Source: Myxococcota bacterium (GTDB lineage: Bacteria > Myxococcota_A > UBA9160 > UBA6930). From it: a DNA stretch of 64,000 nt. The notes beneath the pieces are model-generated. The model made no database searches and was not told where the DNA came from. It saw only the letters and a list, made by a program, of their open reading frames with translations. Position 1 is the stretch's first letter, and every line of letters starts with the position of its first letter. The position numbers and the translations under genes were made by a program. Of this stretch, positions 11,246 through 52,732 are shown in pieces. The stretch spans positions 176,052-240,051 of the forward strand of contig JANQFK010000022.1 of assembly GCA_028277885.1 (NCBI GenBank). Direction: 5' to 3'.

Positions 11246-11521
11246 GGAGATCCCCCAGACCGGACGAGAGCCCGTCGGCTCGCGTTGCCGGCTGCTTTCC
11301 CGGCCGACGCGGCCGGGCTCATTGTTGCAGGGCGCCTGGGGGAAGGGCGTGCGGCGCCTGAACCCTCGGGCGCCCTGGAGAGGAGAGGTCGCTGCTCCGC
11401 CGCCTCTCGACCTCGCAAATTGGGCGATATCACACCGCCGTGTCAAGGATTTTCTGCACCACCCCCGGCGCAACGGGGCCCCGTTTGGAGGGCGATGGAG
11501 GGCGATGGCAGGGGTCCGACG

Positions 11522-12895: not shown

Positions 12896-12903
12896 CGCGC
12901 GGC

Positions 12904-14418: not shown

Positions 14419-14494
14419 GACGCTCCAGCATAGGCGATGGCGGGCGGCGGGGTCCCAGGGCGCGGGCGGGCTCCGCGAGCTGAAGGGGGCAGGG

Positions 14495-16198: not shown

Positions 16199-16250
16199 GC
16201 CGGGGTAGGTAGCGCAGCGCCGGCGGCGCTTCGGGGGCGCCGCCGCGGCG

Positions 16251-19573: not shown

Positions 19574-19730
19574 GAGCCCCCGTTGCGGAGAAGCTGCTGG
19601 AAGGGCGCCAAACATACCCGAGGGTGCGGGCTCGGCTCCGCCCCGGCCTCAAGAGCGGACGGCGGGCCTCCGATCCCGTCCGGGTCCCCGTGCGCCGGGC
19701 CCCGCCTCCGGCCCGATCGAGGAGACGACC

Positions 19731-20510: not shown

Positions 20511-20581
20511 CGCTGGCGCCGGGGACGCGCTTCGCGTAGAACGCCCGGAGGCCGCGCGGCGCGGCCCCGGAGACCTGGCAG

Positions 20582-21280
20582 ATGGCGGCGTCCCGAGGCC
20601 ACGGCTGGTGGCCCTACCTGGGCCCCTACGGCCTGTTCCTGATCCTGGTCGAGATCGGCAGCCGCACGCCGGAGTCCGCGGCCGGCGCGATGCTGCTCGT
20701 GAAGGTGCTGCTCCCCGGCGCCCTGGTGCTCCACTTCGCCCGACGCGGCGACTACCCGGAGCTGAGCGGCTACCGACCCGGCGCGGCCGGCTTCGCGGCC
20801 GACGTGCTGTGCGGCCTGGTCATCACGGCGCTCTGGATGGGCCCGTTCCTGCTGCTTCCGGGCCTCGAGCGCGGCGCGCCCGAGGACGCCTTCGACCCCG
20901 CCGGCTTCGCGCCGCTGGGCGCCGGGGTCGCCCTCGGCGTGCGCCTGCTGGGCTTCGGGGTGGTGACGCCCTTCGTCGAGGAGCTCTTCGTGCGCAGCTT
21001 CGTGATCCGGCTGGTCGACGTGATCGACACCGGCGAGGACTTCCGCAGCGTCCCCATCGCCCGCTTCACCTGGCGGAGCTTCGTCATCACCGCCGTCTGG
21101 TTCACCTTCACCCACGTGCCCTGGGAGTGGGGCGTGGCCGCCGTCGCGGGCGTGGTGTTCAACCTCTGGCTCTACCAGCGCCGCCACATCGGCTCCCCCA
21201 TCGTCGCCCACGCCGTCGCCAACGCCTCCATCTGGGCGATCGTGGTCCTGGGCCCAGGCGACCTGTGGGTATTCCTGTAG
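20582..21280 (+). CDS. CPBP-family intramembrane glutamic endopeptidase (CAAX protease-related)
   Basis: 232-aa polytopic protein with motifs PFVEELFVRSF, FTFTHVP and VAHAVANASIW. Confidence 0.9.
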   Translation: MAASRGHGWWPYLGPYGLFLILVEIGSRTPESAAGAMLLVKVLLPGALVLHFARRGDYPELSGYRPGAAGFAADVLCGLVITALWMGPFLLLPGLERGAPEDAFDPAGFAPLGAGVALGVRLLGFGVVTPFVEELFVRSFVIRLVDVIDTGEDFRSVPIARFTWRSFVITAVWFTFTHVPWEWGVAAVAGVVFNLWLYQRRHIGSPIVAHAVANASIWAIVVLGPGDLWVFL

Positions 21281-24405: not shown

Positions 24406-26178
24406 TTGAGCCTCACCCTTCGAGCAGCACGTGAGCTCCGCGGAGCGGTGGGGGGCGGTCTCGCCGCAGCGGCGATCGGCGCCGGCTGGGCGGCGGGCTA
24501 CGGGCTGCCCGGGAGCGCGATCGCGGCGTCGGCGGGCCTCCACGGCGTCGCCGGTCTCGCGCTGGGTGCGCTCCTCGGCCGGCTCCACCCGGCCCTGGCC
24601 GCGGTGGCGGCCGCCGTGCTGTTCGCCGCGCTGCCGGCGGGCTGGGCGGCGCTCACCGCGGCGCCCGAGGCGAGCGCGCCGCTCGCGCCGCGCCCGGTGG
24701 CGAAGGCCGAGCCCCGGGACGCGACGGCGCGGCGCGTGGCCGTGATCGGGCTCGACGGCGCGGACTGGCGCGTGATCGACCCGCTGCTCGCCGCGGGCGA
24801 GCTTCCCCACCTGCGCGCGCTCCTGGCGCGCGGGCGCGGCTGGGTGCTGCGCTCCACCGACCCCAGCAGCTCGCCGGTGGTGTGGACGTCGATCTTCTCG
24901 GGCAAGCCGCCCGAGGCCCACGGCATCACGGACTGGGACTCGTCCCGCGCCGACAACCGGCGGGCGGCGCTGCTCTGGGAGCTGCTGGCCGGGGCCGGCC
25001 TGCGCTCGGTGGTGGTGAACGTGCCCGGCAGCTGGCCGCCCACGGCCGTGGACGGCGCCTTCGTGTCGGGCTTCCCGATGCCCTCGCCGCTGCTGCCCGC
25101 CTCGGCCGAGACCGGCTTCCAGAACCTCGGCACCCTGGTGGACCCCGAGGCCCGTGCGGCGACGCTGACGGTGGTGGGCGCGCGGGACGGCCGCGCCGAC
25201 GTGAGCCTCGGCCGTCTGGCGCCGCGCGCCCGGGGCAGCCTGCGCCACCCGCTGTTCGAGACGCGCGCGGCCCGGCGCTGGCTTCCCGCCCGGTCCCTGG
25301 AGACCGAGGTCGCGCTGGCCAACGGCAGCGCGCCGCCGCCGGGCGAGTGGTCCCACTGGCACCACCACGCCGAGGCCGGCGTGGCCCTCGTGTACCGCAT
25401 GCACCGCCTGGCGGACTCCCGCCTGTGGCTCACGCCGGCCTTCCAGGACCCGGCGCGGCCGTCCCTGGTCTTCACCAACGCGCCCTGGGTCGCCGAGGCG
25501 CTGGCCGCGAACGGGCCCTACGTGGTGGAGGGAGCCGGCTGGCGGCTCGCCGCGGAGCCCGCGCTGCGCACCACCCTGGTCGAGCACCTCGAGCAGGTCG
25601 AGGCGCGCCATCGGCGCGCCGCCGAGACGCTGCTGGCGGCGGTTCCCGACTGGCGGCTCTTCGCCCACGTCATCACCCTGCCGGACCGGGTCTCCCACGC
25701 GTTCTGGCGCTTCCACGCGCCCTCGGACTACCCGGCCGCGGAGCCCGGCGAGGCCGCCGCCCAGGCCGAGCGGGTGCGCGAGGCCTACCGGGTGGCCGAC
25801 GTCCACCTCGGCGCGCTGCTGGCCCGGGTGGACGACGGCGAGACCCTGATCGTGGTGCCGAGCGACCACGGCTTCCAGTCGAATCCGCCGGAGTGGGGCA
25901 ACCATCGCGACGCCGGCATCCTGGTGCTGGCCGGGCCGGGCGTGGGCCATCGGCCCGAGCGCGGCGAGCGCTCGATCTACGACGTGACGCCGCTGGCCCT
26001 GGCGGCCCTCGGGCTACCGGTGGCGTCGGACATGGTGGGCGAGGTGCCGGGCGGCCTGGCCGCGGCCGACACCGTGCGCCGGATCGCCAGCTACGAGCGC
26101 GGCGCGGCCCCCGCGGCCGGCGCCCGCATCGACGAGACCACCACCGAGCAGCTGCGCAGCCTCGGCTACGTGGAGTGA
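24406..26178 (+). CDS. membrane-anchored alkaline-phosphatase-superfamily enzyme (type I phosphodiesterase/NPP-like)
   Basis: N-terminal TM helices. Motifs VIGLDGADW, SSSPVVWTSIFSGKPPEAHGI and VVPSDHGF. C-terminal tail is EQLRSLGYVE*. Confidence 0.85.
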   Translation: MSLTLRAARELRGAVGGGLAAAAIGAGWAAGYGLPGSAIAASAGLHGVAGLALGALLGRLHPALAAVAAAVLFAALPAGWAALTAAPEASAPLAPRPVAKAEPRDATARRVAVIGLDGADWRVIDPLLAAGELPHLRALLARGRGWVLRSTDPSSSPVVWTSIFSGKPPEAHGITDWDSSRADNRRAALLWELLAGAGLRSVVVNVPGSWPPTAVDGAFVSGFPMPSPLLPASAETGFQNLGTLVDPEARAATLTVVGARDGRADVSLGRLAPRARGSLRHPLFETRAARRWLPARSLETEVALANGSAPPPGEWSHWHHHAEAGVALVYRMHRLADSRLWLTPAFQDPARPSLVFTNAPWVAEALAANGPYVVEGAGWRLAAEPALRTTLVEHLEQVEARHRRAAETLLAAVPDWRLFAHVITLPDRVSHAFWRFHAPSDYPAAEPGEAAAQAERVREAYRVADVHLGALLARVDDGETLIVVPSDHGFQSNPPEWGNHRDAGILVLAGPGVGHRPERGERSIYDVTPLALAALGLPVASDMVGEVPGGLAAADTVRRIASYERGAAPAAGARIDETTTEQLRSLGYVE

Positions 26179-26853
26179 GGCGCCGGCGCCGGCGGTCTCC
26201 TCCGCCGGACCCTCGGTGGGCCAGCGCTCGCCGATCAGCGGGTCGAGGGAGAGCGCGAAGGAGAGCAGCCGGCTGCGCGCGGCCTCGGTCTCGCCGGAGC
26301 GCAGCGGCGTGCTCAGCCGGATGAGCGCGCCGTCGGCGCGGCCCTCGAGCAGGCGCCCGGCCAGGCGGTCGAGGTTCTGGTCGATACCGCCCAGCATGCC
26401 GGTGCGGCGGTGGGAGCGGTACCAGAACAGCACCAGGCGCCGCTCGCGGTCGCGCTCCACCACGTACTCGTTCATGGCGAGCTCGCCCTGCGGGTCGGCG
26501 CGCACCACCCGGGACTCGGGGATCCCCCAGCCCGCGCCGGTGTAGCAGCCCCGGGGCGTGTGCTCGGGACGGCCGCCGCGGCCGGTGCCGTAGTAGCCGA
26601 GGTAGAGCCACACGACGCCGCCCTCGGAGCTCCGGTAGGCGCGCTGGAGGTTGAAGTCGGCGCGCAGCGCGTTCTCCACCACGGAGTCGATGGGCAGGTC
26701 CTCGGAGCGCCAGCCGTCGATCTCGCGGGGCAGGGTGGCGAGCGCGCTGGCGTCGACCACCGGCGCGCCGCGCAGGGTGAGGGCCCAGGCGAGGGCGCCC
26801 ACGGCCACCAGGACCGCACACAGCAGCGCGGTGGAGAGCTGGTCGCGGCTCAC
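26014..26853 (-). CDS. EpsI-family protein (exosortase-associated periplasmic domain)
   Basis: Part of track ORF 26014..27684. GTG 26853 forms a GTGA overlap with the upstream stop. N-terminal TM helix, then LPREIDGWRSEDLP..LQRAY..VWLYLGYYG..EHTPRGCYTGAGW..LVLFWYRSHRR..GRADGALIRLSTP. Confidence 0.8.
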   Translation of the reverse strand: MSRDQLSTALLCAVLVAVGALAWALTLRGAPVVDASALATLPREIDGWRSEDLPIDSVVENALRADFNLQRAYRSSEGGVVWLYLGYYGTGRGGRPEHTPRGCYTGAGWGIPESRVVRADPQGELAMNEYVVERDRERRLVLFWYRSHRRTGMLGGIDQNLDRLAGRLLEGRADGALIRLSTPLRSGETEAARSRLLSFALSLDPLIGERWPTEGPAEETAGAGASLHVAEAAQLLGGGLVDAGAGRGGRAALVAGDPAHGVGRGQAARHLAHHVRRHR

Positions 26854-28082
26854 CGCGCTCCCCTCCCCAGGCGCAGGCCCAGCCGGCGCCCTCCCCAGAG
26901 CGCCGCCGCCGCCGCGCCCAGCTGGGCGAGGGGGGTCGGGCGCAGCCCGCCGAGCAGGGGCAGCGCCGCGGCGCCGGCGAGGCCCGCCGCCAGCCACGCC
27001 GCGCCGCCCCGGGACGGCGCGAACAGGCCGACCGGGAAGGCCCAGAGCGCCAGCCAGGCCATGGCGAGCGCCGGCCGCAGGCGATCGAAGGCGCTTCGCT
27101 CGGGCAGCAGCAGCATCCAGCCGTCTCCCACGGTCGGCCCGAGCCCGCAACGCTCGAGGCCGTTCACCGCCAGGCACAGATCGGCTTCCGAGCGCCTCGC
27201 CTGCACCCGGATCGCATCGCCGGGCGCCGCCGCCGCCAGCGCGCCGGGGCTCCGGACCCGGGTGGACTCGAGGCCCAGGGCCTGGCCGCGGCTGCGGTAG
27301 CGCAACACGAGGTCGGGACCCTCGGGCCCGAGCAGCAGGAGCCCGTGGCCCTCGACGTCGGTGATCAGCAGCAGGGCGGCCTGGCCGGAGGGGGCGGGGC
27401 CCGCGCGCCCCTCGACCTCCACCCGGAACGGGCCGGTCAGGGAGGCGCGCACGGCCTCGGCATCGGGGAGCCGGCCGTGGGGAACCGGAGCGCCGTCGAG
27501 GCGCGCCGCGTCCAGGGACCCGGCGTAGGGCGCGAGGTGGCCCAGGTCCGGCGTCCAGTGCCCCGAGAGCGGTCCGTCCGCTGCGCGCCCCGGAGCCGCG
27601 GCGAGCAGGAGGCCGGTGCCGGCCAGGGCGGCGAGGCAGACGGCCAGCGCCAGTGCGGCGGCGAGCGGGCGCGGGCGCAGCCACGCGTCGGCATGGGCGG
27701 CCGCCAGTGCGCCGAGCCCCGCGCCGCTCGCGTTCGCGATCACGTCGACGAGGCTCGGGTCGCGGCCGGGGATGGCGAGCTGGGCGGCCTCCACCGCGAG
27801 GCCGAGGGCCAGACCCGCCGCGGCCACGAGCCCGGGACGCACGCCGAGCAGCACCGCCGCGGCCCCCGCCGGCAGCAGCAGGGCGAGGTTGCGCAGCACG
27901 TCGGAGAGCGCGATGCCGCCCGGCGCCGCGTCCGGCGGCGGTACGCCCGCACTCGGGCCGGGTGCGGGCCAGAGGGTGGCGAACGCGAAGGCGGCGAGCG
28001 CGCAGGCCAGCGCGAGGGCCGCCGTCGGCCGTCGCCAGTGCGAGGCACCCGACGCGTGCGTGCTCCCCTCGGCTTTCCCCAT
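26850..28082 (-). CDS. VanZ-like membrane domain + beta-sandwich (LamG-like?) domain + C-terminal TM helices
   Basis: Track ORF 26850..28160 trimmed to ATG 28082. VanZ-like stretch SDVLRNLALLLPAG...GRDPSLVDVIANASGAGLGA. Central soluble domain, then 3 C-terminal TM helices. Confidence 0.75.
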   Translation of the reverse strand: MGKAEGSTHASGASHWRRPTAALALACALAAFAFATLWPAPGPSAGVPPPDAAPGGIALSDVLRNLALLLPAGAAAVLLGVRPGLVAAAGLALGLAVEAAQLAIPGRDPSLVDVIANASGAGLGALAAAHADAWLRPRPLAAALALAVCLAALAGTGLLLAAAPGRAADGPLSGHWTPDLGHLAPYAGSLDAARLDGAPVPHGRLPDAEAVRASLTGPFRVEVEGRAGPAPSGQAALLLITDVEGHGLLLLGPEGPDLVLRYRSRGQALGLESTRVRSPGALAAAAPGDAIRVQARRSEADLCLAVNGLERCGLGPTVGDGWMLLLPERSAFDRLRPALAMAWLALWAFPVGLFAPSRGGAAWLAAGLAGAAALPLLGGLRPTPLAQLGAAAAALWGGRRLGLRLGRGAR

Positions 28083-28183
28083 CGCGGCGCCAGAACCTAG
28101 CAGTCCGGCGGGTGGGCCCGGTAGCAAGCCGGGGCCGTCGCCGCGTGCCGACAGGGTCACGGGCAGAGGGCTAGCATGCCGCG

Positions 28184-29404: not shown

Positions 29405-30960
29405 GCGGAGACGAGCGAGGCGGGGCGACGGCGGAGGGCGGCGGCGAGGCCCCCGGCAGCGAGCCCTTCGCCATGGACCGCATCGGGCGCCACACCCTGG
29501 TCTACGGCCTCGGGATCGCGCTGCGCCAGTCGGTCTCGTTCCTGATGCTCCCGATCTACACCCGCTACCTCTCGCCCGCCGACTACGGCGTGATGGAGCT
29601 GATCGAGCTCGCCCTCGACCTGATCGCGACGGTGGCGGGGGCGCGCATCGCGGTGGGGATCTTCCGCTACTACCACAAGGCCGAGACGCCCCGGGACCGG
29701 GACGCCGTGGTCTCCACCGCGTTCCTCGTGCTGACGCTCAGCTACCTGACCGTGGGCCTCGCGACCCTGCTCTTCGCCGCGCCGCTGGCCCGGCTCATCT
29801 TCGGCTCCGAGGAGCACGTGGTGCTGGTGCGCCTCGCTGCGACGAGCCTGGCCCTCAGCAGCCTGACCCTGGCTCCCCTCACCCTGGCCCGGGTGCGGGA
29901 CCGCTCCACGCTCTTCGTCACCGCGAACGCGGCGATCCTGCTGCTCAAGGTGGGGCTCAACCTGGTGTTCCTCGCCGGTCTCGGCCTCGGCGTGCTGGGC
30001 GTCTTCCTCAGCAACGTGATCGGCAGCCTGGTGGTGGGCGCCGCCCTCACCGTCTACCTGGTGCGCGAGGTGGGGCTTCGCTGGTCGCGCTCCGCGACGC
30101 GGGACCTGCTGCGCTACGGCATCCCGCTGGTCGGCACCCAGCTCGCCACCTTCGTGGCCACCTTCGCCGACCGCTTCTTCCTGAACGCGGCCGCCGACGA
30201 GGCGGCCGTCGGGCTCTACGGCCTCGCCTATCGGTTCGGCTTCCTGCTGGCTGCCGTGGGCTACATGCCCTTCGAGCTGGTCTGGGAGCCGGCGCGCTTC
30301 GCCGTCGCCCGGCGCCCCGACCGCGACACGATCCTGGCCCGCGGCTTCGTCTACCTGAACCTGCTGCTCGTCTCCGCCGCCGTGGGGATCACGCTCTTCG
30401 TCGACGAGGTCCTCGTCCTCATGACCGCACCGGCCTTCCATCCCGCCGCGGCCATCGTCCCGCTGATCCTGGTCGCCTACGTGTTCCAGGGCTGGGCCGG
30501 CATCCAGGACATCGGGATCCTGATCCGCGAGAAGACCGAGTACGTGACCCTGGCGAACTGGGTGGCGGCCGGGGTCGCCCTGGTGGGCTACGCGATCTTC
30601 GTCCCGCGCTACCTGGCCTGGGGGGCGGCGGGCGTCACCGTGGTGGCCTTCGCGGTGCGCTACGTCGGCGTCTACTGGGCCTCCCAGCGGCTGTGGCCGG
30701 TGCGCTATCGCTGGGGCCCGGTGCTGCGGATCCTCGCCTTCGCGGGAGCGGCCTGCGCGGCCGGGCTGGCGCTGCCGCCCCTGGGGCTGGCGGCGGCCCT
30801 GGGTGCCAAGGCGCTGCTGTTCGGCGGCTTCGTGCTCGCGGTCTGGAGCCTGGGCGGGCTCGCCGCCGAGGAGCGGGAGGAGCTCGCCGCCATGGCGGGC
30901 GCGCTGGGCGCCACCCTGACGGGGCGCGGCCGCAGCGACGCCCCGGGGACGGGCGGATGA
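29401..30960 (+). CDS. Wzx-type oligosaccharide flippase (MOP superfamily)
   Basis: ATG 29401 forms an ATGA overlap with the previous stop. 519 aa, about 12-14 TM segments, polysaccharide-biosynthesis-protein-like N-terminus. Confidence 0.9.
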   Translation: MSGDERGGATAEGGGEAPGSEPFAMDRIGRHTLVYGLGIALRQSVSFLMLPIYTRYLSPADYGVMELIELALDLIATVAGARIAVGIFRYYHKAETPRDRDAVVSTAFLVLTLSYLTVGLATLLFAAPLARLIFGSEEHVVLVRLAATSLALSSLTLAPLTLARVRDRSTLFVTANAAILLLKVGLNLVFLAGLGLGVLGVFLSNVIGSLVVGAALTVYLVREVGLRWSRSATRDLLRYGIPLVGTQLATFVATFADRFFLNAAADEAAVGLYGLAYRFGFLLAAVGYMPFELVWEPARFAVARRPDRDTILARGFVYLNLLLVSAAVGITLFVDEVLVLMTAPAFHPAAAIVPLILVAYVFQGWAGIQDIGILIREKTEYVTLANWVAAGVALVGYAIFVPRYLAWGAAGVTVVAFAVRYVGVYWASQRLWPVRYRWGPVLRILAFAGAACAAGLALPPLGLAAALGAKALLFGGFVLAVWSLGGLAAEEREELAAMAGALGATLTGRGRSDAPGTGG

Positions 30961-32235: not shown

Positions 32236-32254
32236 CGGCTTGCGCTTTCGGGGG
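32236..32254 (+). repeat. conserved intergenic motif, copy A (CGGCTTGCGCTTTCGGGGG)
   Basis: Near-identical to copy B at 52827-52845 and related to copy C at 61825-61840. All three are in gaps upstream of plus-strand operons. Confidence 0.5.
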
Positions 32255-32472
32255 TCCCGAGGGCGGGGCGCGGTAGCCCACCCGGGCTGCGGCGTTGCTC
32301 CCGCGCCCGGGCCCTCTACGTTGGCCGGAAATCGTCGCTGCGGGTTCCGCCTCCGCCCCGATTCTTCCGATACGCATGGGAGGACCGGAGGCCCGGCGGC
32401 GGGCATCCACACGGTCCGGAGGGCCCGGGAACGCAGCGCCCGGGGAGCCTAGGAGTGGGGGCGAACGGCAGC

Positions 32473-38388
<5,916 letters not shown>

Positions 38389-43573: not shown

Positions 43574-44433
43574 CGGGGCGGCCGGAGCTGCTCGAGATCG
43601 ACGGCGACGTGCTGCGGCGCAGCCTCGATCGCGAGCCCTTTCGCATCCGCCACCGCCTGAGCGGTCACCCGCTCTTCGCCGTGGAGCGGCTGCTGCGCCT
43701 GTGTCGAGATCTCCCCGAGGAGTGCGTCGAGTACAACGCCGGCGACGTCGCCGTGGGTCAGGACGCGGCCCTCACGCCGCGCACCGGTCTCTCCGCCGAG
43801 GAGACGGTCCGCCGCATCGCCGAGCAGCAGTCCTGGATGGTGCTCAAGTACGTGGAGCGCGATCCCGAGTACCGCGCGCTGCTCCACGCCTGCCTCGACG
43901 AGGTCCGGCGCCACAGCGAGGCCGTGGCGCCGGGCATGGACCGCCGCGAGGGCTTCGTCTTCCTGTCCTCGCCCGGCTCGGTGACGCCCTTCCACATGGA
44001 CCCGGAGCTGAACTTCCTGCTCCAGGTGGCGGGCAAGAAGCGGATGCGGCTGTTCGACAACGCCGACCGCGGGATCGTGTCCGAGGCGGAGCTCGACCGC
44101 TTCCACGCCGATCACCCCCACCGCAACCTGCCCTTCCGGGAGGAGTTCGACGCCCGCGCCCGGGTGCACGACCTGGCACCGGGGGACGGCGTCCACGTGC
44201 CCGTCACCACGCCCCACTGGGTCGAGGTGGGGGACGAGGTCTCGGTCTCCTTCAGCATCACGTTCCGCAGCGACGTCTCCGAGCGGCGCGCCGGGGTGCA
44301 CGCCTGGAACGCGGCGCTGCGCCGGCGGGGCTGGCGTCCGCGCGCAGTGGGGGCGTCGCCGCGCCTCGACGACGCCAAGTACCTCGCCTGGCGGGCGCGG
44401 CGGCGGCTGGTGGGGATGCTGCGCCGTGGCTGA
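43570..44433 (+). CDS. JmjC/cupin-type 2OG-Fe(II) oxygenase
   Basis: GTG 43570 forms a GTGA overlap. Motifs TPFHMDPE (HxD/E) and VPVTTPHWV (distal His). Confidence 0.85.
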   Translation: MTGRPELLEIDGDVLRRSLDREPFRIRHRLSGHPLFAVERLLRLCRDLPEECVEYNAGDVAVGQDAALTPRTGLSAEETVRRIAEQQSWMVLKYVERDPEYRALLHACLDEVRRHSEAVAPGMDRREGFVFLSSPGSVTPFHMDPELNFLLQVAGKKRMRLFDNADRGIVSEAELDRFHADHPHRNLPFREEFDARARVHDLAPGDGVHVPVTTPHWVEVGDEVSVSFSITFRSDVSERRAGVHAWNAALRRRGWRPRAVGASPRLDDAKYLAWRARRRLVGMLRRG

Positions 44434-45880
44434 GGAGGGCGCCGCCGTCGACACCCGGGGCGAGGGGCTGCGGGTCGCGCGCAACAGCGCGTTCCTGAGC
44501 GGCGGCGCCGTGGTGGGGCTCGGCCTGGGCTTCGTCAGCACCATCCTGGTGACCGACACCCTGGGCGAGGACTACGGCCTGCTGATCGGCGCCCAGCGCT
44601 TCGTCGGCTTCTTCCTGGTGATCGCGAGCTTCGGCCTGCACCCCCTGCTGGTGCGCCGTCTGGCGGCCCGCCGCGACGAGCCCGGCGAGCTCTTCGGCAC
44701 GGTGATCTTCCTGCGCGCGCTGCTCGGTGCCTTCTTCGCCTTCCTGGTGCCGACGGTGGCCGCGGTGGCGGGCTACCTGCCCGACGCGCGCTGGGTGCTG
44801 CTGGGGTTCGTCGCCATCGAGTTCCTGGGCGTCTTCGCCGACTCCTACGTGGCGCTGTGCGAGGGCTACGAGCGCATGGCGCGGGTGGCCCTGGTGCCCC
44901 TGGTGCGCTCCCTCACCACCTTCGTCGGCGTGGTGGCGGTGACGCTCTCGGGAGCGGGGCTGGCGGCGATCCTCGGCGTCTACCTGCTGGGCCAGCTCGT
45001 CCGCCTGGGGTTCGCGGCGGCCCTCGCCCACGGTGCGCTGCCGCGCATGCAGGTGCGGCTGCGCCGCGATCGGGTGCGGCCGCTGCTCTCCGAGGCCGGC
45101 TGGTTCGTGGCCGTGGGGCTCTCCTCCTCGGCGCTGGCGTCCCTCGCGGTGGTGGGGCTGGCGCGCCTGGCGGGCCCCGGCGAGACCGCGCGCTACGGCG
45201 CGGCGCTCAACTTCGTCGACCTGGTCGTGATGGCGCCCCTGCTGGTGCAGCGCGCGCTGCTGCCCGCGTTCAGCCGGCTCCAGGCCAGCGGTGGCGCGGC
45301 GGGCCTCGCGAACGGCGGGCTGCGCATCGTGCCCGCCCTGCTGATCCCGGCCGGCGCCGGGCTCGCGGTGCTGGCCGATCCCGTGCTGGCCCTCTACCCG
45401 AGCGGCCAGTTCGGCGAGGCGGCGCCGGTGCTGCGGGTGCTCGCCCTGGGGCTCCTGTTCCTCGGGCCGAGCTACGTCTCGGGCACCTACCTGACGGGCT
45501 CCGGCCGCCTGCGCACCCTCTTCGTGGTGAACGTCGTCGCGGCCGGCGTCGAGGCGCTGCTGCTGCTGGCGCTGGTGCCGAGCCTGGGCGCCCCCGGCGC
45601 GGCCTGGGCGGCGGTCACGGCCTTCGCCGCGGCGTCGGGGATCCAGCTGCTCGCGATCCGCGGCGAGGGCGTGGAGATCCCCTGGGCCCCGCTGCTGCGG
45701 GTGGGGCTGGCGAGCGCGGGGATGGCCGCGCTGGTGTATCCGTTCCGCGAGCTGCCGCTGCCCGTGGCCGTGGCGGTCGGGGTGGTAGGCTACGCGGCGC
45801 TGCTCTGGCTGCTCACGCCGCGGGACAGCCTGGAGCGTCGGCTGCTCGAGCAGGGGGTCGCGCCGTGGCGGAGTCGCTGA
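44426..45880 (+). CDS. second Wzx-type flippase (MOP superfamily)
   Basis: GTG start overlaps the previous stop by 8 nt. 484 aa, about 12-14 TM segments. Confidence 0.85.
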   Translation: MAEEGAAVDTRGEGLRVARNSAFLSGGAVVGLGLGFVSTILVTDTLGEDYGLLIGAQRFVGFFLVIASFGLHPLLVRRLAARRDEPGELFGTVIFLRALLGAFFAFLVPTVAAVAGYLPDARWVLLGFVAIEFLGVFADSYVALCEGYERMARVALVPLVRSLTTFVGVVAVTLSGAGLAAILGVYLLGQLVRLGFAAALAHGALPRMQVRLRRDRVRPLLSEAGWFVAVGLSSSALASLAVVGLARLAGPGETARYGAALNFVDLVVMAPLLVQRALLPAFSRLQASGGAAGLANGGLRIVPALLIPAGAGLAVLADPVLALYPSGQFGEAAPVLRVLALGLLFLGPSYVSGTYLTGSGRLRTLFVVNVVAAGVEALLLLALVPSLGAPGAAWAAVTAFAAASGIQLLAIRGEGVEIPWAPLLRVGLASAGMAALVYPFRELPLPVAVAVGVVGYAALLWLLTPRDSLERRLLEQGVAPWRSR

Positions 45881-45882
45881 GG

Positions 45883-46986
45883 GTGGCGCGGGTGGCCGGG
45901 GCCGGAGACGCGCGCCACGCGGACCGCTGGCTCGCGCCCGGCCCGGAGTGGCGGCGCTGCGAGTCCCAGCTCGAGGCCGCGGGCGTTCCCCTCGCCTTCG
46001 TGCAGCGCGCCGTCTCGGCCGAGGCGGAGCGGGCGGGGGCCTGGCGGTTCCTGGCCGTCCGGGACGACGAGGAGCGCTGCCGCTGCGGCTTCGCGGTGCG
46101 CGAGGAGGGGACGCGGGCGCTCCCCGGCCACCGCATCTGGCGCGTCGAGCGCTTCGGCGCGGCGGCCGACGCCGCGAGCCGCGCGCACGCCCTCACGGCC
46201 CTGGCGGCGCGGGCCCGGACGGCCCGACGCGTGCTGCGCGTCGAGCTCGGCGTGGTGGAGCGCGACCCGGAGCGCGCCGCCGCCCTGGCCCGGGAGGCGG
46301 AGCGGGCGGGCTTCGCGCCGAGCCCGAGCCCGCGTCTCTACCGCGACACGATCGCGATCGACCTCCGCCGCGACCTCGACGCCATCCTCGCCGGGTTCAA
46401 GAAGCAGACGCGCAAGAACCTGCGGCGCATGGAGCGCGAGCCCTTCGCGGTGCGGCCCCTCGAGGATCCGGCCTGCGCGGAGCGGATGGAGCGGCTGCTG
46501 GCCGAGACCATGGGGCGCACCGGCGGGCCCGCCGAGGCCGCGGACTGGCGGGCGCGCATTCGCGTCGCCCGGGAGCACCCCGGGCTCTCCCGGCTGGCGG
46601 GCCTGTTCCGCGACCCCGGGCAGGGGCCCGAGGCGCTGGTGGCCTTCGGCTGGGCGGTCCACAACGGAGACCACGTCGAGTACCGCACCACCGCGTCGAC
46701 CCGCATCGCGGGCTCGCGGCTGCCGCTCACCTACGGGCTCGCCTGGGACCTGCTGCGCTGGGCCCGGGAGCGGGGCGCCGCCTGGTTCGACTTCGGCGGG
46801 GTGAGCGCGGGCGGGCTGGGCAGCGAGGATCCCCTGGGCGGCATCTCGGACTTCAAGCGCTCGTTCGGGGGTGAGGTCACAAGCATTGGCTCTGAATGGA
46901 TTTTCGAGCCTCGGCCGCTGCTCGCTCGGGTGGCCCGAGGCGCGGGAGCCCTGCGCCGGGCGGTCCGCGGCAGGCGCCGCTCGTGA
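45883..46986 (+). CDS. FemAB-like (aminoacyl-transferase-type GNAT fold) protein
   Basis: C-terminal part of track ORF 44857..46986, with GTG 45883 as a tentative start. Motifs FKKQTRKNLRRMER and YGLAWDLLRWARERGAAWFDFGG...GISDFKRSFGG. Confidence 0.8.
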   Translation: MARVAGAGDARHADRWLAPGPEWRRCESQLEAAGVPLAFVQRAVSAEAERAGAWRFLAVRDDEERCRCGFAVREEGTRALPGHRIWRVERFGAAADAASRAHALTALAARARTARRVLRVELGVVERDPERAAALAREAERAGFAPSPSPRLYRDTIAIDLRRDLDAILAGFKKQTRKNLRRMEREPFAVRPLEDPACAERMERLLAETMGRTGGPAEAADWRARIRVAREHPGLSRLAGLFRDPGQGPEALVAFGWAVHNGDHVEYRTTASTRIAGSRLPLTYGLAWDLLRWARERGAAWFDFGGVSAGGLGSEDPLGGISDFKRSFGGEVTSIGSEWIFEPRPLLARVARGAGALRRAVRGRRRS

Positions 46987-47981
46987 GCCCGGTCGTCCAC
47001 CTGGTCGCCTCCATCGACACCGAGGAGGACAACTGGCTGCCCACCCGGAACGACGTCCGCGTCGAGAACATCCAGGAGCTGCCGTCGCACCACCGCCTGC
47101 TGCGCGCGCTGGGCCTCAAGCCCACCTACTTCGCCGATCACCCGGTGGTGGCCGACCCGGCCGCGGCGGCGCGGCTCGCGGAGCTCGAGGGGGCCGAGCT
47201 CGGCGCCCACCTGCACCCCTGGAACACGCCGCCCCTCGACGAGGCGCTGACCCCCGCCCACACCATGCTGCGCAACCTCCCCGCCGCGCTCCAGCGGGCA
47301 AAGCTGGCCCACCTGGTCGACGCCCACGAGGCCGCCTTCGGGCGCCGGCCCACCTCGTTCCGTGCGGGCCGCTTCGGCCTGGGACGCGAGACCGTGGCGG
47401 CCCTCATCGACGCGGGCTTCGAGGTGGACAGCAGCGTGGTGCCCTTCGTGAGCTGGCAGGGCGACGAGGGCCCGGACTTCGACGGCGCACCGGTCCACCC
47501 CTATCGCCTCGACGGTCGCTCGGACCCCCGGACGCCGGCGAGGGACGGCCCGCTGTGCGAGATCCCGCTCTCGGCCGGCTTCACGCGCCGGCCCTTCGGC
47601 TGGCGCTCGCGGCTGCATCGCCGGCTGTCGCGGCCCCCGTTCCCCCGGCTGCGCATGCTCGGGCTGGCCTCGCGCCTGGGCCTGGCCCGGCGGGTGATCG
47701 TGAGCCCCGAGACGGACACCGCGGAGGACATGCTGGCGGTGTCGCGCCAGCTCGTGGCCGAGGGCGCCTCCTGCCTGCAGATCTTCTGGCACAGCCCGAG
47801 CCTCGTGCCCGGCCTCGGGCCCTTCGTGCGCGAGCCCCGCGACCGCGGGGCCCTGGAGCGTCGCATCGAGGACTACGTATCCGGCCTGGCGCGGGACTAC
47901 GAGCTGCGGCCGGTCACGGTGAGCGAGGCGGCGGCCGCGCTCCTCCCGCCGCTTCCCCCGCGACCCGGGGCGTCGGCGTGA
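46983..47981 (+). CDS. polysaccharide deacetylase-like protein (WalW-type)
   Basis: Track ORF 46896..47981 trimmed to GTG 46983 (GTGA overlap). Motifs HLVASIDTEEDNW, GAHLHPW and FRAGRFG. Confidence 0.85.
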   Translation: MSPVVHLVASIDTEEDNWLPTRNDVRVENIQELPSHHRLLRALGLKPTYFADHPVVADPAAAARLAELEGAELGAHLHPWNTPPLDEALTPAHTMLRNLPAALQRAKLAHLVDAHEAAFGRRPTSFRAGRFGLGRETVAALIDAGFEVDSSVVPFVSWQGDEGPDFDGAPVHPYRLDGRSDPRTPARDGPLCEIPLSAGFTRRPFGWRSRLHRRLSRPPFPRLRMLGLASRLGLARRVIVSPETDTAEDMLAVSRQLVAEGASCLQIFWHSPSLVPGLGPFVREPRDRGALERRIEDYVSGLARDYELRPVTVSEAAAALLPPLPPRPGASA

Positions 47982-48553
47982 GGGGCCCGGCCCGACGCGC
48001 ACTGCGCGGCCTCGGTCGCCTGGCCCTGCGCCGGGACGCGCGCCAGGACGCGCTCCACGAGTGGAGGCGCCGCCTCGGGAGCGAGCCCCCGCTCCCGGAC
48101 GGAGCCATCCAGGAGGTGCTCTTCGTCTGCTACGGGAACGTCTGCCGCAGCCCCTACGCCGCCGCGCTCCTCGCCGCGAGGCGGCCGGGCCTCGGCGTGC
48201 ACTCGGCGGGCCTCGAGGCGGGGGAGGGGCGGGCCGCGGAGCCCACGGCCCGGCGGGTGGCCGCCGGCCGCGGGGTCTCGCTCGAGCCCCACCGGGCCCA
48301 TCGCCTCGCCGCGCCGGACCTCCAGCGGGCGGACCTGGTGCTGGTGATGGAGGGCCGTCACGTCGACGCCGTCCTGCGCGCCTGGCCCGAGGCGCGGCCC
48401 AAGCTCCGCCTGCTCGGCGACTACCGGGCCGCGGCGCCCTTCCGCATCCCGGACCCCTGGGGCGAGTCCGACGAGGTCTTCGCAGCGGTGTTCGCGCGCA
48501 TCGAGGCCGCGGTGGCGCGGCTGGCCGCGCTCCTCGAGGAGCGGACGTCGTGA
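47978..48553 (+). CDS. low-molecular-weight protein tyrosine phosphatase (Wzb-like)
   Basis: GTG 47978 forms a GTGA overlap. P-loop VLFVCYGNVCRSP and DPWG. Confidence 0.9.
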   Translation: MRGPARRALRGLGRLALRRDARQDALHEWRRRLGSEPPLPDGAIQEVLFVCYGNVCRSPYAAALLAARRPGLGVHSAGLEAGEGRAAEPTARRVAAGRGVSLEPHRAHRLAAPDLQRADLVLVMEGRHVDAVLRAWPEARPKLRLLGDYRAAAPFRIPDPWGESDEVFAAVFARIEAAVARLAALLEERTS

Positions 48554-49668
48554 GCTTCGCCTGGCTCGTCGTCGGCCTCGGGCTGGCCTGGGTGGTCTAC
48601 GGCTACCTGGGCTACCCGCTCGTCCTGCTCGCGCTGCGCCGGCTCGCGCCGCGCCCCGTGCGCAGCGCGGAGGTCGCGCCGCCGCTCTCCTTCATCCTGG
48701 CCGTCCACGACGGCGAGGCCCACCTCGAGCGCAAGCTCGCCGCCACCCTCGCTCTCGACTACCCCGGCCCCCTCGAGGTGATCGTCGCGTCGGACGGCTC
48801 CCGTGACGGCACCGATGCCATCGCGGAGCGCTTCGCCGATCGCGGCGTGGTGCTCGTGCGCAACCCCGAGCGCCAGGGCAAGGAGGCCGCCCAGGCCCGG
48901 GCGATCCGCCGCGCCACGGGCGAGCTGCTGGCCTTCAGCGACGTCACCGCGGAGCTCGAGCCCGACGCCCTCACCCGGATCGTGCAGCCCTTCGCGGACC
49001 CTTCGGTGGGCTGCGTGAGCAGCGAGGACGTCGTGGCGGGGACGGGCGGGGAGGGCGCCTACGTGCGCTACGAGATGGCGCTGCGGCGCCTCGAGTCCGA
49101 GACGACCAGCCTGATCGGGCTCTCGGGCTCGTTCTTCGCGGCCCGCCGCGCCCTGTGCGAGCCGTGGCCCGCCGACCTCGCGAGCGACTTCCGGGTCGCC
49201 CTCGAGGCGGCGCGCCGGGGCCTGCGTGCGGTGAGCGAGCCCCGGGCCCGCGCGCGCTTCGGCGCAGTGCGGGAGACGCGCGACGAGTGGGTGCGCAAGG
49301 TGCGCACGGTGCAGCGCGGCATCGCGGTGCTCTCGGCGTACCGCGACGTCCTCCACCCGCGCCACGGCCGGGCGGCCTTCACGCTGTGGAGCCACAAGGC
49401 GGTGCGCTTCGGCTCCCCCTTCGCGCTGCTCGCCGTGGCCCTCGCGTCGCTGCCCCTGGCGGCGAGCGGTCCCTGGGGCCTCGCGCTGGTCGCCGCCCAG
49501 GGGCTCGGCTACGGACTCGGCGGGCTCTCCCTGCTGCGGCCGTCGCTGCCCCTCGGCCCCGCCCGCCTGCTGGGCTTCTTCCTGCTCGTGAACGCCTCGA
49601 CGCTGGTCGCCTGGCGGCGGCACTGGACCGGCCCGCGCGCGGTGACCTGGCAGCCCACCTCGCGATGA
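48550..49668 (+). CDS. membrane-embedded GT2 glycosyltransferase (synthase-like, TM helices at both ends)
   Basis: GTG 48550 forms a GTGA overlap. N-terminal TM helix, motifs VIVASDGSRDGT and FSDVT, 3-4 C-terminal TM helices. Confidence 0.9.
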   Translation: MSFAWLVVGLGLAWVVYGYLGYPLVLLALRRLAPRPVRSAEVAPPLSFILAVHDGEAHLERKLAATLALDYPGPLEVIVASDGSRDGTDAIAERFADRGVVLVRNPERQGKEAAQARAIRRATGELLAFSDVTAELEPDALTRIVQPFADPSVGCVSSEDVVAGTGGEGAYVRYEMALRRLESETTSLIGLSGSFFAARRALCEPWPADLASDFRVALEAARRGLRAVSEPRARARFGAVRETRDEWVRKVRTVQRGIAVLSAYRDVLHPRHGRAAFTLWSHKAVRFGSPFALLAVALASLPLAASGPWGLALVAAQGLGYGLGGLSLLRPSLPLGPARLLGFFLLVNASTLVAWRRHWTGPRAVTWQPTSR

Positions 49669-49675
49669 GTGCGCG

Positions 49676-50806
49676 ATGAGCGGAGCCTTCCATCGACGGC
49701 CCCCGGGCGGCGAGCCCGTGCGCGCCGGACAGCTCGCGCACCTGCTGCGCGAGCGCGATCCCGGCGAGCGGCTGGCGGCCCGCCTGCGCGAGCGGCTCGG
49801 CGTCGAGCACGTGGGCTTCCACGCCTCGGGCCGCGAGGCCCTGCGCGCGCTCCTCGTCGCGGTGGCGGCCCGCACGGGTCGCGGCGAGGTCCTGGTGCCC
49901 GCCTACACCTGCTACTCGGTGCCGTCGGCGGTGGCCGCGGCGGGCCTGCGCGTGCGCCTGGTGGAGGTGGACGCCCGGGGCGCCCTCGATGCCGGGCGCC
50001 TCGCGGACGCCCCGCTCCGGGCCGCCGCGGCGCTGGTGGTCTGCAACCTGTTCGGCGTTCCCGAGCCCCTGGCGCCGCTGCGCGAGATCGCGGCCGCGGC
50101 CGGCGTCTTCGTGGTGGACGACGCCGCCCAGTCCTTCGGCGCCGCGTCCTGCGAGGGGCCGGTGGGAGGGCGCGGCGATGCCGGGATCCTCAGCCTGGGG
50201 CGGGGCAAGCCGCTCTCGGGACTCGGCGGAGGCGTCCTCGTCGGCTCCCGGGAGGCGGAGCTCGCCGCGCCTCCGCGGCCCGCGGGCGGGCGCGCGAGCG
50301 CGCTGCTGCGCGCCCTCGCCTACGACGCCGCCCTCTCACCGCGGGTCTTCCCCTGGCTCGCGAGGCTGCCGGGCCTCGAGGTCGGCGTCACGCGCTTCGA
50401 CCCGGGCTTCCGGCGCGGAGCGATCCGCGGCGACGCCCTCGCGCTGGCGGATGCGCACCTCGCCGTCTTCGACGCCGAGGTCGAGGGCCGGCGCGCGCTC
50501 GCGCAGGACCTCGGCGAGAGCGTCGCCCGCGCCGGGCTCACGCCGCTCGCCGCGCCGAGCCGGCAGGGCGTCTACCCGCGACTCGTCCTGCGCGCTCCCG
50601 ACGCGACGCGCCGCGAGCGCCTGCTCGAGCGCCTGCGACCCCTCGGCGCGAGCGGGATGTACCCGGCGGCCCTGAGCGAGGTCGCGGCCCTGGTCCCGCA
50701 CCGTGCCGACGCGGAGCGCTGCCCGGTCGCCGAGGACCTGGCGCGCCGCATCCTCACCCTGCCCCTGCACCCGGCGATCGCCGAGGGCCTCGACGAGCTC
50801 GTCTAG
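49676..50806 (+). CDS. DegT/DnrJ/EryC1-like PLP aminotransferase-fold protein
   Basis: Motifs VPAYTCYSVPSAV, VVDDAAQSFGA and SLGRGKPLS (candidate PLP Lys). Confidence 0.8.
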   Translation: MSGAFHRRPPGGEPVRAGQLAHLLRERDPGERLAARLRERLGVEHVGFHASGREALRALLVAVAARTGRGEVLVPAYTCYSVPSAVAAAGLRVRLVEVDARGALDAGRLADAPLRAAAALVVCNLFGVPEPLAPLREIAAAAGVFVVDDAAQSFGAASCEGPVGGRGDAGILSLGRGKPLSGLGGGVLVGSREAELAAPPRPAGGRASALLRALAYDAALSPRVFPWLARLPGLEVGVTRFDPGFRRGAIRGDALALADAHLAVFDAEVEGRRALAQDLGESVARAGLTPLAAPSRQGVYPRLVLRAPDATRRERLLERLRPLGASGMYPAALSEVAALVPHRADAERCPVAEDLARRILTLPLHPAIAEGLDELV

Positions 50807-50865: not shown

Positions 50866-51669
50866 CTAGCCCGCTCGCCGACGCGTCTCGATCCAGGCCA
50901 GGGCCAGCACGAAGGCGACGAGGGGCAGGCCCGACTGGAGCGCGTGCCGGCCCAGGGCCGGCTGGCCGAGCAGCAGCAGGCCCGCCGCCCCGAGCACCGC
51001 GACCGCCTGTCCCGGGATCGCCCACAGGCCGAAGACGAGCGCGCGCCGTAGCAGGCCGGCGGACCCCGCGCGCGCCCGCACTCCCGCGTACCACCCCATG
51101 CCCGCCAGCAGCACGGCGAGGCGCAGGCCGCCTTCGTCGATGCCGAGCTCGGCCCCCGACGGGGTGCGCAGCAGCGGACCGCTCGCCGTCAGCCCGGCAC
51201 CGAGAGCGCTCCAGACCCCGGCCGCGAAGCGCGCGAGAGGCGCCTCGAGCCAGGACGAGACCAGGCTCGTCGCCGCGGTGGGGGGCGGCACGATCCACAG
51301 CGAGAGGGCCGCGGCAGGCAGGCTCGGCCGGCCCGTCGCGAGCGCCAGGCCGCAGAACGCCACGGGCAGGCCCAGGCGGGCGACGGACCACGCCCCGCCG
51401 GCGATGCCGAGAATCTGGAGCGCGACGCCGGCCACGAGTGCGACGCTGCCGAGCCGCGGGCGGCGCGGGGAGGCGGGCTCGCCCCGCGAGCACAGCACGA
51501 TCAGGATCGGCGCGACCGCGATGCCCCAGCTGCGGTCCACCGCGGTCAGGCTGCGGACGAGATCGAAGAGGACCGGCGAGAAGGCGGCGCCCAGGGCGAG
51601 CCAGGGCAGGGCCGCCTGGGAGCGGGCGGGGTCGGGATGGCTCAGCTCAGCCCCCGATCCCGGCAGCAC
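50866..51669 (-). CDS. exosortase/archaeosortase-like polytopic membrane protein, divergent; canonical catalytic Cys not evident
   Basis: 267 aa, about 8 TM segments, with an EpsH-like layout (RSWG near the N-terminus, SLWIVPPP, GIDEGGLRLAVLL where xxCSGxR is expected, HALQSG near the C-terminus). High GC3. The CDS call is more secure than the family call. Confidence 0.6.
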   Translation of the reverse strand: MLPGSGAELSHPDPARSQAALPWLALGAAFSPVLFDLVRSLTAVDRSWGIAVAPILIVLCSRGEPASPRRPRLGSVALVAGVALQILGIAGGAWSVARLGLPVAFCGLALATGRPSLPAAALSLWIVPPPTAATSLVSSWLEAPLARFAAGVWSALGAGLTASGPLLRTPSGAELGIDEGGLRLAVLLAGMGWYAGVRARAGSAGLLRRALVFGLWAIPGQAVAVLGAAGLLLLGQPALGRHALQSGLPLVAFVLALAWIETRRRAG

Positions 51670-52732
51670 CGCCGGCGCCGATCGCGGCGCCGGGTGGCGC
51701 GGCGTGGAGCGCGCGATCGGTCTTGAGCGCGCACGCGAAGGACCAGCCGCGGGTCAGCCCCATGCGCGGCAGGCGCAGCGGGTCCGAGCCCGGCCGCACC
51801 GCGCCGAGCTCGGTGGTGAAGGCGGCCTCGCAGCCGCTGCGCGCGATGGCGCTGCGGGCCGCTTCGCTCTGGTGCTCGGGCCCGCCGTAGGGGTAGGCGA
51901 AGGTGGCGACGGGCGCGTCGAGCTCCGCCGCCAGGCGCTCGACGGAGCCCAGCACCTCGGCCTCGCACTCGGCGGCGTCGAGCTGCGCGAGGTTGGCGTG
52001 GGAGCGGGTGTGGGCGCCGAGCTCGAAGCCGCGCCGGCGCAGCTCGCGGACCTGGTCCCAGTCGAGCAGCGGTGCCGCGCGCCCCCGCTCGGGCAGCTTC
52101 GCGTGGGCGGCCCCGGCGAGGGCCCGCAGCGCGGCCTCGATCTCGGCGGGCGGGGTGCGCATCAGGGCCATCGAGAGCTGCCAGTGGGCGCTCTCGCGCT
52201 GGGCGTCGCTCGCGAGGGGCAGGCGCTCGGGCAGGGACCAGCGCGCGCGCAGCTCCGGCGCGCAGGCGGCGACGTCGAGGCTCTCGGCGCGGCTCGCCCG
52301 CAGCGCCTCGCCCAGGCGCTCCCACCAGAACAGCCGGTCGGTCCCCACGAAGTCGGTGTTGAGGAACACCGTGGCGGGAATCCGGAGGGACTCGAGGAGC
52401 GGGGCGGCGAGGTGGAGGTTGTCGGCGTAGCCGTCGTCGAAGCTCACGCCGAATGCGGGCGCGGCGTCGGGCTCGCGGCGCAGCAGCTGCGAGAGGGGCA
52501 GCGGCTCGGCGTGGCGGCGCATGAAGCGCAGCTGGGCCTCGAGCACGTCGAGGGGCACGCCGCGCTCGACCCCGTAGCCCGGGGGCTCGCTGCGCGCGGC
52601 CCGGCCACCGGCGGGCGCCACGCGGTGGTAGACGAGGACGAGCGCGGTGCCGCGCGCCTCCGGGCGACGCCATCGGCGCCGGTACCACCCGCAGGCGTGG
52701 AGGAGCGGGCTGAAGAGCTTCTCCAGCATCAT
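51647..52732 (-). CDS. polysaccharide deacetylase (CE4/NodB-type)
   Basis: Motifs LVYHRV, VSFDDGYADN, ATVFL, LGAHTRSH and AYPYG. Confidence 0.9.
   Translation of the reverse strand: MMLEKLFSPLLHACGWYRRRWRRPEARGTALVLVYHRVAPAGGRAARSEPPGYGVERGVPLDVLEAQLRFMRRHAEPLPLSQLLRREPDAAPAFGVSFDDGYADNLHLAAPLLESLRIPATVFLNTDFVGTDRLFWWERLGEALRASRAESLDVAACAPELRARWSLPERLPLASDAQRESAHWQLSMALMRTPPAEIEAALRALAGAAHAKLPERGRAAPLLDWDQVRELRRRGFELGAHTRSHANLAQLDAAECEAEVLGSVERLAAELDAPVATFAYPYGGPEHQSEAARSAIARSGCEAAFTTELGAVRPGSDPLRLPRMGLTRGWSFACALKTDRALHAAPPGAAIGAGGAAGIGG

Follow-up and report, generated by a model that had tools for sequence, protein, structure and literature searches.

The gene at positions 50866..51669 (minus strand) of a 64,000-nucleotide stretch of DNA from a Myxococcota bacterium (the window in what follows) starts with GTG and encodes a protein of 267 amino acids (P0001, the target) that, on the evidence of profile comparisons, is a member of a divergent branch of the exosortase (EpsH/Xrt) superfamily. 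The alignments indicate that all three catalytic residues of exosortases are absent across this whole family, and not just the two (Cys and probably Arg) that had appeared to be missing from the target in an earlier reading made from the DNA sequence alone (the sequence-only reading). Exosortases are defined by their Cys/Arg/His triad and by a many-to-one pairing with PEP-CTERM proteins, and are almost always encoded in exopolysaccharide loci. Judged by its aligned columns, the family is incapable of the Cys-thioester transpeptidation that has been proposed for exosortases, and a function other than classical exosortase chemistry is expected because it has lost the three residues (Cys, Arg and His) on which peptide cleavage depends. 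With a probability of roughly one half, the protein may be a non-proteolytic 'pseudo-exosortase' that serves as an inner-membrane adaptor in polysaccharide assembly, by analogy with other membrane peptidase folds that have lost their activity. A large conserved family that retains the fold, the type of locus and the EpsI partner but has no triad parts the polysaccharide-linked role of the exosortase fold from peptide cleavage, and this role becomes testable through the family.

Homology to exosortases and the catalytic columns

The family was built by an exhaustive HMMER search of 1.84 billion representatives, which retrieved 369 of them at E<=1e-3 and 270 at E<=1e-10, nearly all with lengths of 250-300 amino acids; the family counts and conservation figures given throughout were obtained from an alignment of 116 of the 369 members. 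A word-indexed search with the target alone returned one homolog, and word-indexed homolog searches gave 2, 9 and 2 matches in three runs, the candidate list being saturated by Ala/Leu-rich sequences. By itself, the target had no match to the Pfam model Exosortase_EpsH (PF09721), the only Pfam result being a sub-threshold match to DUF7139 (E 0.0047), and its best NCBIfam match was XrtW (E 0.0024; 16.3 bits versus a cutoff of 425). When the members were scanned singly, 68/116 matched PF09721 at E<=0.01 (best 6.9e-12) and 42/116 at E<=1e-5, and some exceeded the Pfam gathering score (for example P0141, with 32.4 versus 25.7 bits). The NCBIfam matches common to more than one member were to exosortase models only, and were weak (XrtV 22, XrtD 18, XrtW 14 and EpsH 13 matches); no type-specific NCBIfam exosortase cutoff was reached by the target or the family, the best family-wide E values being 1e-7 to 4e-6, and one member, P0006, had no NCBIfam match at E<=1e-5. 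Profile-profile alignment of the family to canonical exosortases with hhalign resulted in a probability of 96.4% and an E value of 1e-9 over 233 columns, and a more diverse template that included the exosortase of locus L024 gave 96.8% and 2.3e-10 over 255 columns. It is because of the PF09721 matches and these profile-profile E values that the family is placed in the exosortase superfamily. The search of Pfam and NCBIfam proposed in the sequence-only reading thus yielded nothing significant for the target alone and a significant result for the family, and at that level the description of an exosortase-like protein with eight transmembrane (TM) helices is borne out by the 68 PF09721 matches and the hhalign results.

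An unrelated membrane-protein family that only mimics the exosortase topology, an explanation that had been offered at the outset, might be argued for from the single sequence, which lacks a significant PF09721 match, and from a Foldseek search with the target model, which found no match in the PDB. The Foldseek result is uninformative, since the PDB holds no exosortase structure to match. Mimicry is ruled out by hhalign E values of 1e-9 to 2e-10, for alignments that cover almost the entire protein, and by the 42 members that match PF09721 at E<=1e-5; moreover, a PxP helix break, the Gly of the CxG motif, a beta-meander and the same genomic partners (EpsI and XrtA-system genes) are held in common with exosortases. 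It is the least probable of the explanations considered here.

The subfamily appears to be undescribed. Literature searches found no account of Cys-less, inactive or triad-less exosortase homologs, NCBIfam release 20 contains no model for the family, and Pfam catches about one third of the members at or near threshold without setting them apart. These members, which pass into Exosortase_EpsH, risk being labelled as functional exosortases, while the rest, including the target, stay hypothetical; the database names of members, where encountered, were all 'hypothetical protein'. The taxonomy of members, where stated, pointed mostly to metagenome-assembled genomes of Myxococcota (L017, L021, P0028), and relatives are also present in marine and soil metagenomes.

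No more than six residues are invariant in the EpsH family; they lie in the motifs CxG, NxxR and HxxxG, and it was proposed that the Cys, Arg and His make up a triad like that of sortases, on the outer face of three successive helices (Haft 2006, PMC1569441). The register of the target family relative to these motifs was derived from two hhalign runs and from the alignment of the canonical L024 exosortase to the family hidden Markov model with hmmalign, and all three agree. The column of the catalytic Cys is occupied by E179 in the target (51133..51135; this and all other codons given here are on the minus strand) and by D in 75, H in 11, Q in 8, E in 6 and N in 4 members, with no Cys in any of the 116, while the Gly of the same motif is kept (G181, 51127..51129; G in 111/116, aligned to the G of canonical CSG). 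In the NxxR motif, the column of the Asn holds Q221 (51007..51009; Q in 111/116, N in the L024 exosortase) and that of the catalytic Arg holds A224 (50998..51000; A in 62, G in 23 and V in 10 members, R in canonical enzymes). The column of the catalytic His of HxxxG is filled by Q245 in the target (50935..50937) and by D in 32, S in 21, T in 18 and R in 9 members. The loss of Cys and of Arg from the target is therefore confirmed, and the survey of orthologs for the same substitutions that had been suggested reveals the replacement of all three catalytic residues family-wide.

The 'late His' of HALQSG, which had been taken for the His of the exosortase HxxxG motif, did not withstand alignment: H242 is three residues before the aligned column and is unconserved, and was rejected as the catalytic His. 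Neither of the two outcomes named beforehand as speaking against the sequence-only reading was found, because the homology to exosortases is significant and Cys60 and Cys106 do not fall on the catalytic column. Both of these residues were also rejected as substitute nucleophiles, as they are unconserved and off the CxG column (the column of C106 has L in 46, I in 25, V in 19 and C in 7 members). The alignment contains no conserved Cys column (the best reaches 22/116, and Cys is entirely lacking from 10/116 members) and no conserved His column (best 48/116; 2/116 members without any His).

The gene, its predicted topology and its conserved residues

The open reading frame (ORF) is a real gene. 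Its GC content at the three codon positions is 0.79/0.61/0.94, which is the usual coding pattern in a window of 75% GC; the antisense frame has an equally high value at the third position, but the order of the first two is wrong. A protein identical to the target is present in public collections. The GTG at 51669 is the first in-frame start past the upstream stop, and use of the next one, V44, would remove TM1. As had been noted, a gene for a CE4 polysaccharide deacetylase (51647..52732, minus strand) lies on the same strand and overlaps the target by 23 nucleotides, an overlap of the translational-coupling type; this immediately upstream gene encodes an HfsH-like protein without a signal peptide (PF01522; best NCBIfam match HfsH). 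All of the peptide motifs that had been listed are present, namely RSWG (residues 46-49), SLWIVPPP (123-130), GIDEGGLRLAVLL (176-188), IPGQAVAVLG (218-227) and HALQSG (242-247), with two corrections: GIDEGGLRLAVLL spans 51106-51144 and not 51121-51141, and the comparison of RSWG with YSHG does not hold as a motif, RSWG being unconserved in the family.

An AlphaFold2 model calculated with the 116-sequence alignment has a mean predicted local distance difference test (pLDDT) value of 94.1 and a predicted template modelling (pTM) score of 0.89. It contains helices at 14-29/31-42 (kinked at S31-P32), 49-61, 71-91, 94-112 and 117-126/131-155 (broken at PxP), followed by a three-strand periplasmic beta-meander at 161-176, ahead of TM6, and by helices at 181-198, 203-233 and 237-266; the order of these elements is the same as in a low-confidence model of the canonical exosortase P0158. 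Basic residues are concentrated in the loops 62-70, 113-116 and 198-209 and at the C-terminus, and because of this clustering both termini are predicted to be cytoplasmic. Hydropathy, the positive-inside pattern and the AlphaFold2 model are all consistent with an N-in/C-in protein with eight TM helices. This topology would put E179, R98, D36 and R241 near the periplasmic face, in line with Haft's triad model, and it is of the exosortase type, with eight TM helices and the active-site region at periplasmic helix ends after an extracytoplasmic loop.

The alignment indicates that purifying selection acts on a residue set other than the triad. P128 and P130 are invariant (116/116) and belong to the PxP helix break P128-P129-P130 (51280..51288), which is aligned to the P-x-P of canonical exosortases (MiPlP). 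R98 (51376..51378; R in 107/116) is an intramembrane Arg in TM4 near the periplasmic face, and in one alignment it came to lie near a conserved Arg of canonical exosortases. E142 (51244..51246; E in 97/116) is part of an S-P-x-L-E motif (canonical F-P-L-Q) and is aligned to the Q of TFPLQL. Overall, conservation amounts to 97% for G107, 96% for Q221, P32 and G181, 94% for G113, 92% for S31, R98 and W23, 91% for W193, 84% for E142, 78% for D/E36 and 70% for D/E179 (65% for D179 alone), and the commonest signature at positions 31/36/98/142/179/221 is S-D-R-E-D-Q. No clear pattern of covariation was found among the conserved polar positions.

It is very improbable that the gene is a decaying, functionless relic of an exosortase, as could be thought in view of the missing catalytic residues and of a target that alone stays under every curated family threshold. 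Against decay stand the 270 representatives at E<=1e-10, the invariance of P128 and P130 and the 90-97% conservation of ten other positions, and also the intact ORF with its coding-type GC and its translational-coupling overlap, as well as the confident AlphaFold2 fold.

An active enzyme with a re-tooled carboxylate site is possible, albeit rather unlikely. E142 and D/E179 would act as base or nucleophile at the periplasmic face of the membrane and R98 and Q221 would have a positioning role, and the enzyme might either hydrolyse a sorting signal by a route that avoids an acyl-enzyme intermediate or catalyse a transfer or ligation in which the lipid-linked glycan takes part. The top conserved polar residues are indeed found in the columns of the former active site or next to them (E142 in that of the canonical Q, D179 in that of C and Q221 in that of N), R98, E142 and Q221 are conserved to 84-96%, the CxG Gly and the PxP break, which shape the site, are kept at 96-100%, and the predicted topology places the residues near the outer leaflet, like the exosortase triad (PMC1569441). 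However, no more than 65% of the members have Asp at the nucleophile position, where H, Q, N, Y, P and A also occur, the columns of Arg and His are filled by hydrophobic or varying residues, and a candidate substrate was not found in the loci. Because D179 is Asp in only 65%, an obligatory nucleophile at this position is disfavoured, and binding or structure is favoured over catalysis. Among the explanations given in the sequence-only reading, a pseudo-enzyme retained as a scaffold is favoured over one with a different nucleophile. Somewhat more doubtful again is the idea that the exosortase fold was turned into another membrane enzyme or ligase, in which a site of E142, D179, R98 and Q221 would act on a flipped lipid-linked glycan, for example to attach, trim or pass on the polymer, perhaps in concert with the conserved His/Cys motif of EpsI; if this were true, the suspected link between exosortases and exopolysaccharides would be direct, either catalytic or physical.

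Genomic partners and the proposed adaptor role

The gene is linked genetically, and sometimes physically by fusion, to genes for enzymes of lipid-linked repeat units and for a flippase. In the window, the target and its CE4 neighbour are accompanied by a trio on the plus strand (48118..50806; Pfam assignments) that encodes a low-molecular-weight phosphotyrosine phosphatase, a membrane glycosyltransferase of family GT2 (48580-49668) and a DegT aminotransferase, by genes for a Wzx-type flippase (44426-45880) and a FemAB-like protein (45880-46986), and by a GT4 glycosyltransferase gene with its best match to the PEP-CTERM/XrtA stp2 family; an SGNH hydrolase, a second CE4 protein, a GNAT protein and a sulfotransferase are also encoded around the target. 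A locus search with the family alignment yielded four short metagenome loci, and one with the neighbouring GT2 as query yielded 16. The GT2-DegT pair accompanies the family in eight loci (the window, L004, L008, L017, L019, L021, L029 and L030), and the phosphatase joins the pair in the window, where it was assigned by a CX5R-type motif, and in L008 and L029, where it was assigned by PF01451.

Fusions comprise a CE4 domain that is joined N-terminally, in one reading frame, to the family member in P0004 (an ortholog of the CE4 protein of the window, with 54% identity) and C-terminal domains of GT4 (P0032, probably also P0028), Wzx (P0075) and HAD phosphatase (L007) type. The fused soluble domains are all located at predicted cytoplasmic ends, which fits the N-in/C-in topology. 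In the L007 locus (800-2880), the in-frame fusion of family member and HAD phosphatase is followed by a SIS-domain gene, a pairing that resembles GmhB/GmhA and hints at heptose-containing glycans in that organism.

Further partners come from the exosortase systems. Two hallmark accessory genes exceed their curated cutoffs within the 64-kb window, an EpsI-family gene (26014..26855, minus strand; TIGR02914, 104 bits versus a cutoff of 42.8) at a distance of 24 kb from the target, and a gene for a CPBP/CAAX-protease-related protein of the PEP-CTERM-system type (20540..21280, plus strand; TIGR03008 pepcterm_CAAX, 96.8 versus 81.05 bits). EpsI directly follows the family member in L021 and L005, in which the family members have D, Q, A and S at the four key columns, and lies 10 kb away from it in L029. 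In L031, P0006 comes just after an stp1-like GT4 gene and overlaps it by 4 nucleotides (TIGR03087, 202 bits, below the cutoff of 316.65). The same locus contains an XrtA-system deacetylase (TIGR03006, 342 bits versus a cutoff of 276) and a priming transferase with a score above the cutoff of TIGR03025 (371.6 versus 295.55 bits) and just below that of the XrtA-specific TIGR03013 (EpsB_2; 382 versus 393), in addition to an XrtA-system FemAB protein (236 versus 260) and a partial chain-length determinant (158 versus 279), both best matches below cutoff. The family is thus found in the setting of polysaccharide loci with EpsI and XrtA-system accessory genes.

In the proposed adaptor role, the protein would link assembly and flipping at the cytoplasmic face of the inner membrane to a periplasmic step that involves EpsI. 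Its cytoplasmic side would be tied to the enzymes that build, modify and flip the repeat unit, that is, the CE4/HfsH-like deacetylase, GT4, GT2-DegT and Wzx, and on the periplasmic side a conserved polar pocket of S31, D/E36, R98, E142, D179 and Q221 would be used for binding. We infer both the adaptor or binding role and the partners. Two other roles were considered and not adopted: that of a substitute for a Wzy-type polymerase is unsupported, as L009, L029 and L030 contain Wzy_C genes alongside the family, and the other would be that of a PgaD/IcaD-like accessory of the GT2; L015 has the GT2-DegT trio without the family.

Could the protein still be a sorting enzyme of the PEP-CTERM type, to which the periplasmic partner EpsI, with its invariant H-x-P-x-x-C-Y-x-G-x-G-W motif, gives the nucleophile in trans while the membrane protein docks the TM helix of the substrate? 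The order of family member and then EpsI in L021 and L005 mirrors the exosortase-EpsI order of L024, the His/Cys motif is kept in the EpsI orthologs, and a related locus (L016) encodes a PEP-CTERM protein. However, the motif is equally present beside the Cys-containing exosortase of L024, so that it does not specifically compensate for the lost Cys, the family members of L008, L009, L028, L030 and L031 have no EpsI gene close by, and no family-containing locus has a PEP-CTERM gene. This arrangement is improbable.

No canonical exosortase was found in the 64-kb window or in eight larger family-containing loci, L024, the control, being the only fetched locus with such a gene. A scan for PEP-CTERM tails likewise found none, neither in the window nor across the remaining loci with a family member (about 150 kb in all). 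The sole exosortase homolog in the window is the Cys-less target. In the positive control L024, the same scans recovered the exosortase, EpsI and five PEP-CTERM genes within 5 kb. This Omnitrophota locus shows the canonical arrangement of a similar gene set: at 9959-17174 it encodes a GT2 that is 31% identical, a canonical exosortase of 271 amino acids and EpsI (phmmer E 1.5e-13 with the EpsI of L021), and it also has a membrane protein that by its sequence has the look of a WecA/MraY-type transferase.

Several observations weigh against the adaptor role. The related Myxococcota locus L016, which shares the GT2, EpsI, CPBP and MBOAT genes and whose contig ends before the expected position of the family member, encodes one genuine PEP-CTERM protein with a signal peptide, VPEP, a TM helix and RRRG. 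A canonical exosortase and PEP-CTERM substrates may also exist elsewhere in the genome of the target, as the window covers 64 kb of a contig of about 410 kb. The acidic, Arg and Gln residues conserved within the membrane might just as well make up an active site. The target itself departs from the family at two conserved positions, S139 (P in 104/116) and E179 (mostly D). Each of the fusions is known from no more than one or two metagenomic sequences, and that with CE4 might stem from a 1-nucleotide assembly error where two genes overlap. Lastly, L015 contains the GT2-DegT trio, EpsI and a VanZ-like gene, and no family member within 10 kb on each side; because the family is absent from this well-covered locus, it is not obligatory for the gene set.

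It is instructive to compare the family with known systems. With the exosortases proper (EpsH/XrtA; PF09721, TIGR02602) it shares near-full-length homology, a length of about 270 amino acids, the eight-TM N-in/C-in topology, the PxP break, the beta-meander before TM6 and the Gly of CxG, as well as polysaccharide loci with EpsI, XrtA-system deacetylase, FemAB-like, stp-type GT4 and chain-length genes. In contrast to them, it lacks the Cys, Arg and His and has its own S-D-R-E-D-Q set, no PEP-CTERM genes are near its members, and it scores below all curated NCBIfam cutoffs, the target being below that of Pfam too. XrtD (the VPLPA-CTERM exosortase) and XrtW are natural exosortase-EpsI fusions and are, together with XrtV, the NCBIfam models most matched by the family. 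The EpsI proteins of the window and of L021 resemble their C-terminal EpsI domains, and the family member followed by EpsI looks like a split version of such a fusion; however, the family scores 16-57 bits versus 400-425, has no triad, and its EpsI is a separate and often distant gene. Archaeosortase A (ArtA) of Haloferax volcanii is, as far as the work cited in PMC6098224 goes, the only superfamily member with experimental (genetic) support for Cys/Arg catalysis. The superfamily and the topology are common to ArtA and the target family, but ArtA needs the conserved Cys and Arg, and the family has neither.

A precedent for an adaptor of this kind exists in the rhomboids. The iRhoms and derlins are inactive rhomboid pseudoproteases, in which an intramembrane peptidase fold lost its catalytic residues, was kept under purifying selection and was re-used as an adaptor or client-binding module. 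This is an analogy and not homology, as the folds are unrelated, and the adaptor role is demonstrated for iRhoms and proposed for the family.

Other genes of the window and the related loci

The EpsI gene of the window is most similar to the EpsI domains of XrtD and XrtW, and the EpsI orthologs keep the H-x-P-x-x-C-Y-x-G-x-G-W motif. Upstream of this gene, and overlapping it in a translationally coupled arrangement, lies a gene for a VanZ-like membrane protein of 436 amino acids (26850..28160, minus strand). VanZ-like homologs are also found next to family members or EpsI in L028 and L015; in L028, a fusion of family member and GT4 is directly followed by the VanZ-like gene (PF04892). The protein encoded at 20540-21280 additionally has a weak similarity to the protease half of exosortase E and to myxosortase-type proteases, and has an ortholog in L016; an Rce1-like gene is present in L028.

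In L016, two genes upstream of EpsI have, from the translations of their ORFs, the look of a short-chain dehydrogenase and an FAD-dependent oxidase, possibly a pair of the DprE2/DprE1 type. The PEP-CTERM protein and this dehydrogenase/oxidase pair of L016 are encoded at 1176-1805 (+) and 7714-9773 (-), respectively.

Four sizeable ORFs of the window with coding-type GC have no Pfam or NCBIfam match (46896-47981, 5767-7494, 7455-9371 and 19539-20510, all on the plus strand), and a guess from the sequence that the first of them is deacetylase-like was not confirmed. Envelope-modification genes are located at 2637-4112 (+), 4078-5766 (+), 14495-16261 (-), 12904-14775 (-), 633-1715 (-), 24406-26178 (+) and 29440-30960 (+); they encode a DltB-like MBOAT protein, two PMT_2 (GT-C) glycosyltransferases, a methyltransferase, a 2OG-Fe(II) oxygenase, a type I phosphodiesterase and a second, HfsF-like flippase. 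A Phosphodiest gene is convergent to the family member in L009. The glycan locus of the window also includes a type I polyketide synthase module of 2050 amino acids (32236-38388, plus strand) with the domains KS-AT-KR-DH-ACP and an AMP-binding_C fragment, which suggests a lipid or polyketide moiety on the glycan.

Finally, an SxtJ/DUF5989 pair is encoded a few kb from family members on two unrelated contigs (L028, 13407-15932; L031, 15640-17595). In L028, the pair is followed by a carbamoyltransferase gene, and the counterpart in L031, which has no Pfam annotation, is cut by the contig end.

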